Below, piece by piece: positions 1,786 to 10,075 of a stretch of DNA of 64,000 bases. The DNA lies in assembly GCF_020745735.1 (NCBI RefSeq), contig NC_083402.1, forward strand, positions 8,260,004 through 8,324,003, read 5' to 3'. The notes beneath the pieces are model-generated. The model ran no database searches and was not told where the DNA came from. It saw nothing but the letters and a program-made list of their open reading frames with translations. Positions within the stretch are counted from its first letter, which is position 1. Each line of letters starts with the position of its first letter. The DNA is from Hemiscyllium ocellatum (Eukaryota). The position numbers and the translations under genes were made by a program.

Positions 1786-1832
1786 ATCGCTTCTCGGCCT
1801 TTTGGCTAAGATCAAGTGTCTGTTCTTATCAG
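1786..1832 (+). ncRNA. RNU2: U2 snRNA 5' fragment (nt 1-52) with a 5-nt deletion; non-functional retrocopy/head
   Basis: atcgcttctcggccttttggctaagatcaagtgt|ctgttcttatcag matches U2 nt 1-34 and 40-52 exactly. AGTAT (nt 35-39) is missing. Confidence 0.92.
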
Positions 1833-2137
1833 GACAGGTGTCAAGCTGTGAGTCATCAGAGCTAGTAGAGATCATCGCTGGATCATGATTGGACGCTGGA
1901 GGATTGTTTGGTTGTGCTGACCTGCTCTTGGTGGATCTTTATGCTGGCTTCTGCCTAACGCCAATTCAGGTATCAGCCAACCTCAGAGCTATGGCCTCAG
2001 CAGATGCTCGCAGCCCTGGCCAGGGCATTCGCAACACAGTCAAGGTGACTGTGAAGAAGGTGGAGGAACACACACCAGTCGATCGGAGAGGATTTGTGAA
2101 GGTTTTGCTGAAGTGCTGTGGGTTTGTAGTAGTGGAT
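1833..2137 (+). mobile_element. Tx1-clade LINE, outer copy: 5' UTR and ORF1 N-terminus
   Basis: ATG at 1991 gives MASADARSPGQGIRNTVKVTVKKVEE...CCGFVVVD, which joins seamlessly to VYCLQDF at 5119. Confidence 0.8.
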
Positions 2138-5118
2138 GTCAGATCCACTGATGTCCAGCCGGTGTTCTTCTCTGACCACTGCCTCCTGCTGGCTGGCTGT
2201 CACTAGCAGCGGGTGGGTAAGGGAACGTGGAAGCTGAACACCAAGCTGTTGACCCCGGGAAACATTGAGGAGCTCAAGAGGGACTACGCAGGTTGGAGAA
2301 ATGTGAAGCCCCTCTTTGAGTCTCCAGTGGACTGGTGGGAAACAGTAAAAGGGAACATCAAGCGGTTCTTCATCCTCAAAGGTGTTCAGGAGGTGAGAGA
2401 GAAGCGGGGAAAACTGTCCCTGCTCCAGAAAACTATGCAGAACCTGCTCCTGCTGCAGACGATGGGGGTCGATGTCACGGAGGACCTCAAGGAGGTGAAG
2501 GGCCAGCAAGCCTCGCTCTTTACCTCAGAGGACTCCAACATAATCTTCCGGTCCAGGGTCCGCTCTGTGGAGCAGGACGAGATGTGCTCACGTTTCTTCT
2601 TCCAGAAGGTGCACAAAGAGAGCTCTGTGCTCAGCAGCCTGAAGGAAGAAGATGGCTCGACAACGTCATCTCAGGCTGACGTCATGAGGATCAGTAAATC
2701 CTTCTATGCCAGTCTGTATGACGCGAAGCCAACCGACAGCGTGGCCTCCCAGTCGTTCCTGTCGTCTATCACGGAGGTCTTAGACGACAGAACACGCGAG
2801 AGGCTGGACCAGCCGCTATCTCTGGACGAGCTGACCAAGGCCCTCGAGTCCTTCGAAAAGAATAAAACTCCCGGAAGCGATGGCTTACCGGTCGAGCTCT
2901 ATTCCGCTCTGTGGGACTTGATTGGCCAGGACCTGCCGGAGGTGTATGTCAGTATGCTTCAGGCGGGTACCATGAGCGAATCCATTAGGAAAGGCATCAT
3001 CACCCTCATCTACAAGCGGAAGGGGGAGAGGGAGGAACTCAAAAATTGTAGACCGATCACACTGTTGAATGCAGACGACAAAAATCCTGTCAAAGGTAAT
3101 CGCCAACCGGGTCAGGTCTGCTCTGGGGTCGGTGATTCACCCTGACCAAACCTGTGCTGTGCCGGGCAGGAAGATCGCTGAGAGTCTCGCACTCCTCAGG
3201 GATACGATCGCCTACGTGCAGGACAGAGAGTTGGACGCCTGCCTGATCAGCCTGGACCAGGAGAAAGCCTTTGACAGGATATCACACAGGTATATGAGAG
3301 ATGTTCTCTCCAAAATGGGCTTTGGGGAGGGAATCTGCAATTGGATCAGACTGCTCTACACCAACATCGTCAGTGCAGTCTCAATCAATGGATGGGAATC
3401 AGATAGCTTCCCAGTCACATCTGGAGTCAGGCAGGGCTGCCCTCTCTCTCCTGCCTTGTTTGTGTGCTGCATAGAGCCATTTGCCGAGTCCATCAGGAAG
3501 GATGCGAGCCTGAGAGGGTTGACTATTCCTGGCAGCGGGGGCCTGCAGGTTATGGCCTCCCTGTACATGGATGACGTCGCTGTTTTCTGCTCGGATCCGC
3601 TGTCCGTGCGCAGACTCATGTGCATTTGTGACCAGTTCGAACGGGCCGCGGGGGCCAAGGTAAACCGAGGCAAGAGCGAGGCCATGGTCTTCGGGAACTG
3701 TGCCAACCAATCCTCGATCCCCTTCACCGTCAGGACCGACCACCTGAAGGTGCTGGGTATTTGGTTTGGGGGGGATGGGGCGTGCGCCAAGTCTTGGGAG
3801 GAGCGTATCAGTAAAGTGAGGCAGAAACTGGGCAGATGGAGGCTGCGGTCGCTCTCCATCACGGGAAAAAACCTGGTCATCAGGTGTGAGGCACTGTCAT
3901 TGCTGTTGTACGTGGCACAGGTCTGGCCTATTCCCAGAACCTGCGCCGCTGCAGTCACCCGGGCCATCTTCCAGTTCATATGGAGTTCAAAGATGGACCG
4001 GGTCCGAAGGGACTCACTATACAAAGATCTGGACAACGGGGGAAAAAATACACCCAATGCCACCCTCACACTGATGGCCACCTTTGTGTGTGGCTGCATC
4101 AAGCTGTGCATGGATCCCCGGTACGCAAACACCAAGTGTCACTACGTACTGAGGTTCTACCTGTCCCCGGTGTTGCGAAGGATGGGCCTGGCCTCGCTGC
4201 TGCGGAATGCTCCGAGTAGTTGGACCGTTCCGTACCACCCGTCCTTCGTGGAGAAATTTCTGAAGAAAAACACCTTTGACCACAAGTCCATCAGGAAGTG
4301 GTCACGTTGCATCCTTGAGACCCTTCGGGAAAAGGAGAGGGCGGATCATGTCGAGTGGTTCCCTGAGCAGACTGTCAAAGCAATTTGGCAGAATGCCTCA
4401 TCGCCAGAACTTTCCAACAAGCACCAAGACATGGCTTGGCTGGTGGTGAGAAGGGCTCTACCTGTGAGATCATTTATGCACGCCCGGACTCTCAGCCGCA
4501 CCGCACGCTGCCCTCGAAGCGGCTGCGGGGGGGACGAGACTGTCACACACCTCCTTCTGGAATGTGCCTATGCAGAGGAAGTCTGGAGAGGAATGCAGTG
4601 GTATTTGTCGAGGTTCGTCCCGAGCAGCGCCGTGATGCGGGACTCCGTGCTCTACGGCCTGTTCCCCGGGACGCACACCGAGACGAACATCAACTGCGCC
4701 TGGAGGGTCATCAACTCAGTGAAGGACGCTCTCTGGGTGGTCCGAAACCTGTTGATCTTCCAGCTGAAGGAGTTGACCCCGACTGAGTGTTGCAGACTGG
4801 CACATTCCAAGGTCCAGGACTACGTGTTGAGGGACGCGCTGAAGCTTGGGGCAGCTGCCGCCAAGGCGCGGTGGGGAAAGACCACCGTTTAACATCTGCC
4901 TGTCAAAAGAAAAGCAGGGGGCCCATGCAGTCATTTGGGCTCTGCTGACGCCTCAGCTCAATATATGAGTGAGAAATGCACAGATATGTATGTAATAATG
5001 ATAATTCGGAGCTGTGTATGCAAATGTGGAAATATGAATGGCATTACCTAATGTACAGTGCATCAAATTATTCTATGCATATTTTATGAATAAAGTATAT
5101 TTTTGAAATAAAAAAAAA
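2138..5118 (+). mobile_element. Tx1-clade LINE, 5'-truncated inner copy (EN C-terminus, RT, CCHC finger, 3' UTR, polyA)
   Basis: It begins VRSTDVQPVFFSDH (APE C-terminus). RT motifs: KTPGSDGLP, RPITLLNAD, LDQEKAFD, GVRQGCPLSP, YMDD. C-terminal finger CPRSGCGGDETVTHLLLEC. One frameshift at ~3080. aataaa plus A-run ends at 5118. Confidence 0.93.
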
Positions 5119-8113
5119 GTGTACTGCCTGCAGGATTTCCCAGTGGTAGGGTATTTTGATGTGACCTTCAGGAGTGTGAAGCATTGTGAGCAGCTCCTGA
5201 AGGTCTTCAAGGAGAAGGAAGGGGAACCTCTGTTCTCCATCTTGTTGGCTGTCCTGTTCTGTGTGCTACCAGCGCAGAGGAGTCAGGTTGTAACAATCCA
5301 GATGTACAACCCTTACGTCCCAGCAGCAGATGTCCTGACCTTCTTGAAGAGATATGTCCAGGTTGAAGGAGAGAGTACCGATGTGGTCGATCCTTTCGGG
5401 ATCTGGACCAGCAAAAGACAGGTCAGGGTAACCCTGAGGGTCGACGCCAGTGGGAATATCCTCCACCCACCCTCCAGCTTCGCCATCAGAGGAAGCAGAG
5501 GTTACCTGACATACGCTGGGCAGCCGAAGGTGTGCCGAACCTGCAGGTGGTCAGGCCACATGGCGGAGGATTGTAAGGTGACCATCTGCCGAAACTGCAA
5601 GCAGGAAGGCCACCCGACCAAGGCATGTAAGGAGGGCAAGAATTGTAATCTGTGCGGAGAGGCGGGCCACATGTACAAGGCCTGCCCAAGACGAGGAGCC
5701 GACACCAACGCACAGAGGGCTGGAGGTGGCAACACGAGCCGTGGATCAACTAAGACCAGCAAGGTACCACAACATAGCATGGAAACGGAGTCTGGAGGCA
5801 TCCAGAAGGAAGGGCAGGCTGTAGCAGAGCAGACGGCAGACAGCAGGGAGATGCAGCAGCCGACCCAAGCTCTTTCAAAACAGACGGAGGAAATGGAAGA
5901 GGAGGGATCAGAAGAGGCAGAGGATTGGATTACTGTCAAAAACATGAACAGGAAACCTCTCTGGGGCCCCAAAGCCACCCAGTGAAGGGGGAAGCGACAC
6001 CTACACAAGGAGGATACAGGCAGCTCTTCCGATGGCGAGGACGGGCGCAAGAAGGGTCGCCACCAGAGGAAGAGACAGCGCCGTGGGGAGAAAGGAGGGC
6101 AGCACCGCCCAAGAAGGGAAAGACGATCCCTCTGAGGGGATGGGTAAAGGCCTCCCACTACCTGGTGAAAACCAAGAGTTACTGACCGGCCCACAGCTCC
6201 AGGTAACTGGGAGCAGTGGTCCTGTGACAGCCCTGCTGTCAGATGGAGAACTGGACGGTGCTGACACTGGGCTCGACACAAAGACACCAGAGCGGGGTAA
6301 TGGCTCCAGCGTGGAGCCGGACAGCTACCTCAGCCCTGGGATGGTCCAGCAGATTGCCATCACCACAGGGATGCACACAGCTACCCCAGAGGAGCAAGAC
6401 CAGCAGCAAATGGACACTGTTAAAATTGTTAAAATGGGGTTTAAAAATTGCCAGCATCAACGTGCGTAGCATCAAATCGGCTACGCAATGTGTATCTACA
6501 ATGGCCTTCCTGGCCAGCATTAAAGCCGACCTCCTGTTTCTGCAGGAGTGTGGGATACCGCACCTCAGCAGCTACAGGAGATGGTCGAGCTTGTGGGCCC
6601 ATGGGCAGTCAGTTTGGTCGGGGGGCAACGATAGCCGCACCTCCAGCCTGGGTATCCTGTTGCGAGGAAGCAACTTCACCATCTCTGAGGTTAAGGAGGT
6701 GGTGGGCGGACGCCTCCTCGTCGCCGACGTTATGTACAAGAATGCTCCCTTGAGACTGATCAATGTGTACGCCCCAGTGGGTAAGAGTGAACGGTTGGCC
6801 GTCCTGCAGCAGCTTCCACTGTTGCTGGCTACGTCCAGGCCATTCATTCTGGCCGGAGACTTCAACTGTATCATTGATGCAGATGGACGATCCGGCAGGG
6901 GGGACAGTAAACTGGACGCCACGTCCAGAGCCCTGATGGACATGGTAAAAGATGCCAAGCTGCACGACGTCTTCAGCACCCCTGCAGACGGAGCGCAGCG
7001 TAGATACACCTGGTCACGGGCGGACGGGTCTATCCGCTCAAGGATAGATTACCTGTTTGTGTCCCAAACGCTCTTGGTCAGATCCTGACCAAACCTGTGC
7101 TGTGCCGGGCAGGAAGATCGCTGAGAGTCTCGCACTCCTCAGGGATACGATCTTCTACATGCAGGACAGAGGGTTGGACGCCTGCCTGATCAGCCTGGAC
7201 CAGGAGAAAGCCTTTGACAGGATATCACACAGGTATATGAGAGGTGTTCTCTCCAAAATGGGCTTTGGGGAGGGAATCTGCAATTGGATCAGACTGCTCT
7301 ACACCAACATTGTCAGTGCAGTCTCAATCAATGGATGGGAATCAGATAGCTTCCCAGTCAGATCTGGACTCAGGCAGGGCTGCCCTCTCTCGCCTGACTT
7401 GTTTGTGTGCTGCATAGAGCCATTTGCCGAGTCCATCAGGAAGGATGCGAGCCTGAGAGGGAGGAACTATTCCTGGCAGCGGGGAGTGCAGGTTAAGGCC
7501 TCCCTGTACATGGATGACATCGCTGTTTTCTGCTCGGATCTGCTGTTCATGCGCAGACTCATGTGCATATGTGACCAGTTCGAAAGGACCTTGGGGGCCA
7601 AGGTAAACCAAGGCAAGAGCGAGGCCATGGTCTTCGGGAACTGGGCCGACCAATCCTATATCCCCTTCACCGTCAGGACCGACCACCTGAAGGTGCTGGG
7701 TATTTGGTTCGGGGGGACTGGGTCATGCACCAAGTCTTGGGAGGAGCGTGTCAGCAAAGTGAGGCAGAAACTGGGCAGATGGAAGCTACGGTCGCTCTCC
7801 ATCACAGGAAAAAACCTGGTCATCAGGTGTGAGGCACTGTCATTGCTGTTGTACGTGGCACAGGTCTGGCCTATTCCCAGAACCTGTGCTGCTGCAGTAA
7901 CCCGGGCCATCTTCCAATTTATATGGTGGTCAAAGATGGACCGGGTCCGAAGGGACTTGCTATACAAAGATCTGGGCAATGGGGGAAAAAATACACCCAA
8001 TGCCACCCTCACCCTGATGGCCACCTTTGGGTGTGTCTGCATTAAGCTGTGCGTGGATCCCCAGTACGCAAACACCAAGTCTCACTATGTACTGAAGTTC
8101 TACCTGTCCCCGG
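5119..8113 (+). mobile_element. Tx1-clade LINE, outer copy continued: ORF1 (3 CCHC knuckles), APE endonuclease, ~1 kb deletion, partial RT
   Basis: ORF 5119-5985 has CxxCxxxGHxxxxC three times. ORF 6243-7088 has APE motifs (SINVRSI, LQE, GDFN, SRIDY). The junction gtcagatcc|tgacc at 7085/7086 jumps to RT sequence homologous to 3143 onward. The copy ends where a CR1 begins. Confidence 0.92.
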
Positions 8114-10075
8114 GGTAAGATAAAGGAACCTTAGATGACGAGCGCGGAGGATATTCTCGCCAAAAGAAAGAAGGGAGCTTACGTAAGGTGGAGGAAGCTC
8201 TAAAGGATTACAGTCAGGCGAGGAAGGAGCTCAAAAATGGTCTGAGGAGAGCCAGGAGGGGGCACGAGAAAGGCTTGGCAGGAAGAATTAGGGAGAATGC
8301 AAAGGCATTTTACATGTATGTGTGGAATAAGAGAATGATCAACGAAAAAGTAGGGCTGATCAGGGATAGCATAGGAAACTTGTGTATAGAGTCTGAGGAG
8401 GTTGGGGAGGCCCTAAATGAGTTTTATGCTTCTGTCTTTACTAACGAAAAGGACCTTGTAGTGAATGAAATCATTGAGGAGCAGGTACGCATGCTGGAAT
8501 GGATAGAGATCGAGGAAGCTGATGTGCTGAAAATTTTGACAAACATTAAGATTGACAAGTCGCCAGGGCCAGACCAGATTTGTCCTCAACTGCTTTGGGA
8601 AGCGAGAAATGTGATTGCTTCACCACTTGCGAAGATCTTTGCATCCTTGCTCTCCACCAGAGTCATACCTGAGGACTGGAGAGAGGCAAATGTAATTCCT
8701 TTCTTCAAGAAAGGAAATAGGGAAATCCCTGGCAATTACAGACCAGTCAGTCTCACGTCTGTCGTCTGCGAGGTGTGAGAAAGGATTCTGAGGGATAGGA
8801 TTTATGACCATCTGGAATGTCATGGCTTGACTAAATGCAGTCAGCACACCTTTGTGAGGGACAGGTCATGCCTCACAAATCTTATTGAGTTCTTTGAGGA
8901 TGTTACTCGACAAGTTGATGAGGGTCAAGCGGTGGATGTGGACTTCAGTAAGGCATTTGATAAGGTTCCCCATGGTAGGCTCGTTCAGAAGGTCAGGAGG
9001 AATGGGATACAGGGAAACTTAGCTGTCTGGATACAGAATTGGCTGGTCGACAGAAGACAGTGAGTGGTAGTGGAAGGAAAGTATTCTGGCTGGAGGTGAG
9101 CGGTGTTCCACAGGGCTCTGTTCTTGGGCCTCTACTCTTTGTAATTTTTATTAATGACTTGGATGAGGAGATTGAAGGATGGGTCAGCAAGTTTGCAGAT
9201 GACACAAAGGTTGGAGATGTCGTTGACAGTATAGAGGACTGTTGTAGGCGCAGCGTGACATTGACAGGATGCAAAGATGGGCTGAGAGGTGGCACATGGA
9301 GTTCAACCTGGATAAATGCGAAATGATGCATTTTGGAAGGTTGAACTTGAAAGTTGAGTACAGGATTAAAGGCAGGATTCTTGGCAGCGTGGAGGAACAG
9401 CGGGATCTTGGTGTGCAGGAACATAGATCCCTTAAAATTGCCACCCAAAGTGGACAGGATTGTTAAGAAAGCATATGGCTTTCATTAACAGGGGGATTGA
9501 GTTTAAGAGCCATAAAATCTTGTTACAGCTCTACAAAACTTTGGTTCGATTGCACTTGGAATACTGTGTCCAGTTCGGGTTGCCATATTATAGGAAAGAT
9601 GTGGATGCTTTGGAGAGGGTTCAGAGGAGGTTTACCAGGATGCTGCCTGGAATGGAGGGCTTATCTTATGAGGAGAGGTTGACTGAGCTCGGACTTTTTT
9701 CTTTGGAAAAAAGAAGGAAGAGAGGGGACCTAATTGAGGTGTACAAGGTAATGAGAGGCATAGATAGAGTTGATAGCCAGAGACTTTTTCCCAGAGCAGA
9801 AATTATTAACACAAGGGGTCATAGTTTTAAGCTGTTTGGCGGAAAGTATAGAGGGGATGTCAGAGGTGGGTTCTTTATGCAGAGAGTTGTGAGAGCATGG
9901 AATGCATTGCCAGCAGTAGGTGTGTTAGCGACATCATTGGGGATATTTAAGAGACTGCTGGACATGCATATGGTCACAGACATTTGGGGGTTCGTACATT
10001 AGGTTTACCTTACATGAGGATCAATGGTTGGCACAACATCATGGGCTGAAGGGCCTGTTCTGTGCTGTACTGTTA
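8114..10075 (+). mobile_element. CR1 LINE (5'-truncated ORF2 RT and 3' tail)
   Basis: [65 protein letters not shown] motifs spread over shifted frames. 3' end gggcctgttctgtgctgtactg. Confidence 0.92.

Follow-up and report, generated by a model that had tools for sequence, protein, structure and literature searches.

The window examined here is a 64,000-nt stretch of the Hemiscyllium ocellatum genome. Its best fragment matches, at 74 to 83%, are in Heterodontus proteins and point to a cartilaginous fish as the probable host. Near its start, the 3' LTR of a broken provirus contains a LINE of the Tx1 type, which is itself split by a nested copy of the same family. The following features were annotated.

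575 to 757, + strand: env remnant (broken) of the host provirus; Pfam TLV_coat, E 3.2e-5
1156 to 1785, + strand: provirus 3' LTR up to the insertion point; 82.6% to an LTR copy 4.5 kb before the window, empty site compared
1786 to 1832, + strand: U2-derived head; own-genome U2 identity, Rfam, 54 exact junction copies
1833 to 1990, + strand: element 5' UTR; about 89% to an intact array copy
1991 to 2139, + strand: first part of ORF1 (element nt 208 to 359); comparison with the intact element
2040 to 2056, + strand: PSE look-alike within ORF1 (element nt 257); 98 nt ahead of the nested nick in the window copy
2138 to 5118, + strand: second, 5'-truncated family member nested in the first (element nt 2330 to poly(A)); RVT_1 and zf-RVT, 2-nt overlap, ORF1 hotspot
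5119 to 6433, + strand: remainder of ORF1; in-frame stop at 5983 to 5985
6434 to 7085, + strand: ORF2 AP-endonuclease domain; Exo_endo_phos, E 2.3e-12; ended by an internal deletion of ~1 kb (element nt 2338 to 3341)
7084 to 8116, + strand: RT part of ORF2; the element 3' end is lost here and another LINE starts at 8117

The head corresponds to U2 nt 1 to 52 minus 5 nt (34 to 38 or 35 to 39), being letter-identical to nt 1 to 34 plus 40 to 52 of the genome's own U2 and equally to nt 1 to 33 plus 39 to 52. Rfam aligns U2 to it across a 5-column gap (E 9.4e-7) at a score under the gathering threshold, and a search at that threshold gives no U2 match for the head. The U2 likeness stops at nt 52; the element 5' UTR follows from 1833 and the ORF1 ATG lies at 1991. 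A preliminary description of this locus had reported just such a 5-nt-deleted head fused to a Tx1 5' UTR and ORF1, and both observations hold. It also had the head begin exactly at U2 nt 1. The empty LTR site reads GGCC before the insertion point and ATCTGTGC after it, and the first three head letters, ATC, can be assigned to target or head; because they are common to both, the head does start at the beginning of U2, but "exactly" can mean only nt 1 to 4. The letters ATCTGTGC at the empty site resemble U2 nt 38 to 45.

As had been proposed, the surroundings of the head are those of an ERV LTR and not of a U2 gene: a PSE search of the LTR upstream found no match (PWM score -8.7 or lower at 1684 to 1694). 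The LTR portion beyond the insertion point was not found within the window, and the two LTRs of the provirus are only about 83% alike. A TATA-like box, TATAAAG, lies in the LTR at 1741, 45 nt ahead of the head (1741 to 1786), so transcription from the LTR may at one time have entered the element. The head is not a functional U2 snRNA gene, since it is without full-length U2, the branch-pairing bases, an Sm site or an upstream PSE.

The element does not end at 2137, where the nested copy splits it, and resumes at 5119. In element coordinates, the start of the nested copy and the start of the host copy's internal deletion (7085) are no more than 8 nt apart (about 2330 to 2338). The LINE from 8117 is presumably of the CR1/L2 type, judging from its motifs. 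Intact elements are 5.3 kb long with two ORFs of 492 and 1135 aa, the first of which encodes ZCCHC3-type RBDs and zinc knuckles. A second copy with the same flank, 62 kb upstream, belongs to a segmental duplicate of provirus and insertion together (~95.5% over about 10 kb); the two therefore represent a single event and not repeated targeting of the LTR. Duplication at about 95.5% also means that the insertion is old. After the duplication, the two proviral copies each acquired their own nested insertion at the ORF1 site. The copy in the window is thus an off-target insertion of a Tx1 LINE of the Keno type; it is old and broken, dead and ordinary in itself.

The gap-bearing head and its source copies

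A DNA search for the family returned 773 candidates, of which 40 were scored and 30 loci were fetched; all 30 fetched loci carry the gap. Genome-wide, the exact deleted junction occurs in 54 copies and the undeleted junction in 1 (exact pattern, with one mismatch allowed for the undeleted form). These counts rule out a one-off chimera, the outcome that would have undone the preliminary description. The deleted junctions lie in U2 genes in 22 of the 54 cases and are otherwise dispersed. The only undeleted U2 1 to 52 head on the UTR of the gap subfamily is also dispersed (L081, C7:103425272); it has a 13-nt duplication and an inverted portion, and could be an ancestral state or a restored junction. 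A sister subfamily, about 93% identical, retains the branch-pairing bases and is as common in a variant-U2 array described below. We also detected an ORF1-only derivative of ~1.9 kb with the same tail (eight loci, about 76% to the full element), some copies of which have the gap-U2 head. The UTR and ORF1 were covered at 80 to 99% by contigs of three other organisms' sequencing runs and of one DNA-like run; such contigs do not reveal where transcripts begin, and among the runs listed as containing the element none was recorded as RNA.

Full-length copies of the gap subfamily reside in true U2 genes, as the preliminary description had supposed, and all 24 of those on target have the gap (9 sit in canonical U2, 14 in variant U2 and a single one in a third class). 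Elements of the canonical array take the place of U2 genes in register, and the 300 nt upstream of them are those of intact genes. Most of the 9 canonical-U2 copies encode intact 492-aa and 1135-aa ORFs, and ORFs of 485 to 492 aa and 1135 aa are retained in seven of eight copies on contig C3. Poly(A) is joined to U2 nt 36 to 39 at 62 exact places (control, 0). The Keno target is quoted as TCTGTTCTTATCAGTTTAAT after U2 nt 37 in the relevant part of PMC6136364, and PMC4640811, where it treats the two, assigns Utopia and Keno the same U2 site.

With promoters in place upstream, these source copies are likely transcribed from the U2 promoter, and their RNA likely starts with U2 nt 1 to 52. Heads of 24 dispersed copies begin between U2 nt 1 and about nt 19 and never include promoter sequence, as expected for an RNA beginning at U2 +1. 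Judged from the sequences, the earlier proposal that a U2-promoter transcript would carry the head to off-target sites thus fares well.

Transfer of the head and origin of the gap

The variant U2 genes, in which nt 23 to 30 read TGGAATAT and nt 38 is T, offer natural markers. They form large arrays with a 2.0-kb tandem unit (14 loci on four contigs); their branch-pairing sequence reads GUAGUU, and stems I and IIa still fold. We take nt 23 to 30 to be the U6-pairing region. The third U2 class (two loci) differs in its 5' part solely by the nt-38 change. The variant arrays are heavily colonized by the element and are possibly germline or embryonic U2 variants.

Behind variant-U2 promoters, 14 of 14 gap-headed copies have the canonical nt 23 to 30, and their 3' flank remains variant; in nine, the element is joined to variant nt 38 with nothing in between. 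The head therefore moves along with the element and takes over the 5' part of the target. Probably it is brought in by the RNA and written over the target sequence, in the manner known from R2. The eight variant-array copies that we compared are 0 to 5 substitutions apart, so array turnover may have multiplied as few as two or three insertions into the 14. The outcome of overwriting could equally be reached in two steps, if an insertion first left a doubled head and a deletion then removed the stretch between the 22-nt repeats; no doubled head occurs among the 24 full-length on-target copies.

Truncated on-target insertions (11 loci, about 7 distinct junctions) bear on the origin of the gap. 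They keep 5'-side U2 sequence to nt 37 to 56, which amounts to a target duplication of 0 to 19 nt, and have no gap, nt 33 to 37 being retained. A deletion made at every insertion is excluded by these junctions, and the endonuclease does not remove the 5 nt each time. The gap is one inherited lesion adjoining the nick site, not a per-insertion scar; the suggestion that it marks the Keno target region was right as to place but not as to a recurring process. The gap probably goes back to a single event at the nick site (nt 37/38) of one source copy and has belonged to the template since.

Two rival readings of these data were considered. The canonical head in variant-U2 genes might have come from later gene conversion between arrays instead of from the insertion step, and array copies are indeed nearly identical across contigs. 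However, the switch always falls within the common nt 1 to 22, with the variant promoter upstream and variant U2 downstream, and 22 nt is short for ordinary recombination; we regard gene conversion as distinctly unlikely. The gap itself might have been selected because it prevents re-cutting of the element's own head or splicing interference by the fused RNA, two roles raised in the preliminary description. One of about 9 intact junctions was re-hit, compared with 0 of 24 deleted heads, numbers too few to tell; the predominance of deleted junctions, which persists although annealing via nt 40 to 52 could restore the bases, also speaks for it. Against a role in splicing, no Sm-like site was found in the element, and the sister subfamily, with its branch-pairing bases intact, is equally common in the variant array. 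R2 has inherited junction lesions too, uniform deletions of 3 and 7 bp, along with downstream target duplications, and the sections of PMC3774820 on these junctions give the deletions no such role. Selection for the gap thus seems improbable to us, and a protective role is unsupported for re-targeting and splicing alike. The gap is most simply read as a neutral founder lesion.

The ORF1 landing site and distance from the PSE

Beyond what had been noted before, U5 genes and the family's own ORF1 serve as targets too, and the insertions there keep a set distance to a PSE. Exact poly(A) junctions at ORF1 nt 349 to 360 number 93 genome-wide (control, 0), the nested copy of the window among them, and the insertions at this site have many different 5' truncation points. 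Among 38 fetched head-bearing rows, which include duplicates and one on-target copy, 16 contain both junctions of an ORF1-site insertion and another 6 break at this point.

A motif starting at -60 to -64 is common to six U2 and U5 promoters of the genome; we take it to be the PSE from its position and the PSE consensus. A PWM built from these six promoters finds its best match among 10,620 element positions at ORF1 nt 257, and the result is unchanged with the most similar promoter left out. The distance from this look-alike to the nick downstream is 97.7 +/- 2.3 nt over 18 nested junctions. U2 nicks lie 96 to 98 nt behind the PSE. In the U5 array, two junctions are at U5 nt 33 (96 nt from the PSE; one is a remnant) and one is at nt 41 (104 nt). 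One exact pattern searched genome-wide found no junction into a U1 gene. We examined 27 dispersed insertions with a recognizable duplication (7 full-length copies and 20 from a sample of 77 3' ends): a PSE match at 95 to 101 nt was found in 4 of them (0.17 expected; P 2.6e-5) and none in the other 23. The LTR insertion of the window was not guided by a PSE, there being no match at that site. About 1,100 of 1,273 exact 3' ends lie outside both U2 and the ORF1 site, a figure that combines differing search patterns. By eye, the 77 sampled 3' flanks have no flank in common except the element itself. A test of spacing against indels gave rho -0.40 (p 0.10; 18 nested junctions, only 4 with indels).

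The family thus lands repeatedly ~97 nt behind a PSE-like motif and likely homes on the promoter rather than on U2 sequence. The look-alike in ORF1 makes full-length copies targets for the next copy. It is probably also a promoter for that copy, a suggestion that comes from two cases. Placed in register with U2, the motif predicts a transcription start at element nt 318, and the 5' ends of two independent daughters, both dispersed, consist of ORF1 sequence from nt 316 and from nt 317 to 320, respectively, with unrelated DNA upstream. The nt-316 daughter is present at three duplicate loci, where the ORF1 piece is followed by U1 and gap-U2 pieces; both daughters continue into a full head. A third head type contains ORF1 nt 334 to 353.

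Heads from U1, U5 and variant U2 occur as well. Stacked heads at six loci combine a U5 piece (nt 3 to 6 through nt 42 to 45), a piece of ~35 nt for which Rfam gave no name, and a variant-U2 piece. The U5 and U1 pieces score poorly in Rfam; the U5 identity rests on the U5 genes of the same genome, and the U1 piece (E 2.6) is presumed to be U1. Heads have also been swapped between two body lineages, the window having the gap head on the second body type.

Homing on the promoter has to be set against an endonuclease that reads a loose U2-like sequence (AT.TGT.CT), the PSE spacing then being incidental and the ORF1 site a chance mimic of the U2 target. ORF1 nt 356 to 364 do match U2 nt 38 to 46 at 7 of 9 letters, so that both cues, sequence and spacing, may act; the LTR site with its ATCTGTGC has no PSE, and Kojima 2015, in its discussion of target choice, has the endonuclease as its main determinant (PMC4494074). 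Nevertheless, the U5 junctions at nt 33 keep the 96-nt spacing with no U2-like sequence, nicks in ORF1 spread over nt 349 to 360 instead of falling at one bond, and the 27 dispersed sites match the U2 motif mostly at 3 to 5 of 9 letters (random mean, 3.9) while being enriched in PSE matches. Sequence reading by itself is, we think, unlikely. The heads, for their part, might have come from free snRNAs, through template switching or RNA ligation at the reverse-transcription stage, with no part for snRNA promoters. The stacked U1, U5 and U2 pieces at some 5' ends agree with this, as does the occurrence of a U1 piece where the U1-gene search was negative, and head addition of this kind is the proposal made for SINEU in PMC4494074. 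Free U2 snRNA, however, is without the gap that 54 junctions carry, source copies stand behind U2 and U5 promoters, and an ORF1-derived head cannot come from an snRNA. We therefore judge this origin of the heads very improbable and retain transcription from snRNA promoters as the preferred reading.

Mechanism, relatives and significance

We postulate that full-length copies in U2 genes would be transcribed from the U2 promoter into an RNA headed by U2 nt 1 to 52, with first-strand synthesis primed at U2 nt 36 to 38, where the junctions lie. The U2 head of the cDNA would anneal to the target's own 5' part and take its place, so that every newly entered U2 gene would receive the gap; replacement is seen in the variant markers, and annealing is adopted from R2. 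Outside U2 genes the head would be joined by microhomology, as at the LTR site of the window. The site would be chosen by distance, about 95 to 100 nt behind a PSE bound by the snRNA transcription complex, with a weak local sequence preference; the spacing was measured, and from it we infer tethering. The PSE look-alike in ORF1 makes a full-length copy the target for the next copy and would probably serve as its promoter. Taken whole (a Keno-type LINE, U2-promoter transcription, head overwriting, site choice by PSE distance and a pad in ORF1), this explanation appears to us probable. We are more tentative about a narrower version, toward which we lean slightly on the doubting side: that the LINE docks on SNAPc at the PSE and has a working PSE in the codons of the first beta-strand of ORF1, so that every full-length copy would be both landing pad and promoter, freed from U2 genes, with the older copy's ORF1 destroyed.

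Keno was reportedly described by Kojima and Fujiwara in 2004. In an RT tree of 37 rows (Ixodes and one lancelet row were left out for their short match), support of 100/99 joins the element to proteins of amphibians and teleosts, among them Takifugu BAD04856, Danio BAC82621 and a "transposon TX1" protein; placement outside Tx1/Keno, which could have overturned the preliminary description, was not seen. We assume BAD04856 and BAC82621 to be Keno, and a link from the accessions of the tree to Keno was not found in the literature searched. Passages on Keno in PMC6136364, PMC4640811 and PMC4494074 present it as an AP-endonuclease LINE of the Tx1 clade in U2 genes. The architecture found with Pfam is that of Keno, an RNA-binding ORF1 with zinc knuckles and an ORF2 with AP endonuclease and RT, and in both the poly(A) tail runs into TCTGTTCTTATCAGTTTAAT after U2 nt 37. 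Unlike Keno as portrayed in those passages, the present element is not strictly U2 specific (62 U2 junctions versus 1,273 exact 3' ends, with 93 in its own ORF1 and others in U5 genes), also using variant U2 and having over a thousand dispersed ends, and its U2 head is inherited together with a fixed gap of 5 nt.

Repeated addition of snRNA heads is known from crocodilians, in the Tx1-Mar families and SINEU; these include Tx1 LINEs related to Keno whose heads derive from U1 or U2 (Kojima 2015, PMC4494074), among which Tx1-11_Crp has a U2 head (PMC4494074). According to the part of that paper devoted to them, Tx1-Mar elements target a Mariner element, preferring Mariner-N4-like transposons, and their mode of transcription is left open; here, in contrast, source copies stand behind snRNA promoters and head transfer could be followed by variant markers. 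The element is not itself a SINEU, a short non-coding retroposon with an snRNA head, as it is 5.3 kb long with two ORFs. In R2, as PMC3774820 sets out for its 5' junctions, the RNA keeps upstream 28S sequence, and the target-derived 5' sequence of the cDNA anneals upstream to give uniform junctions. Target-derived 5' sequence and an inherited uniform junction are common to both; R2, however, has a restriction-like endonuclease, Pol I cotranscription and a ribozyme, compared with a putative Pol II snRNA promoter here. Utopia, in the sections of PMC4640811 on it, uses the same U2 site, with target duplications in some lineages and occasional tandem and off-target copies, but has a restriction-like endonuclease and one ORF; identity with Utopia is excluded by Exo_endo_phos at the N terminus of ORF2. 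We conclude that the element behaves as Keno does, except that its 5' junction is inherited much as in R2, with PSE-spaced targeting in addition.

Tethering to transcription factors also places Ty3 and the Dictyostelium TRE elements at a set distance from the promoters of small-RNA genes, with tRNA genes and Pol III factors as the partners. We know of no internal landing site of their own in either.

U2-headed Tx1 LINEs have already been published for crocodilians, and the treatment of snRNA-headed LINEs and SINEs in Kojima 2015 leaves their transcription open (PMC4494074). The openly accessible literature searched contained no paper on PSE-spaced Keno targeting or on a self-carried ORF1 pad; Repbase reports, subscription papers and supplements may nevertheless describe them. 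Here, source copies behind snRNA promoters, together with natural U2 variants as markers, allowed the head to be seen written into its target. If the site is chosen by PSE distance, the specificity of Keno would be a matter of factor tethering and not of sequence cutting, and such elements would be candidates for promoter-addressed gene insertion. A self-carried landing pad would offer a simple route from a site-specific to a dispersed element and may act as a brake on the element's own copy number.
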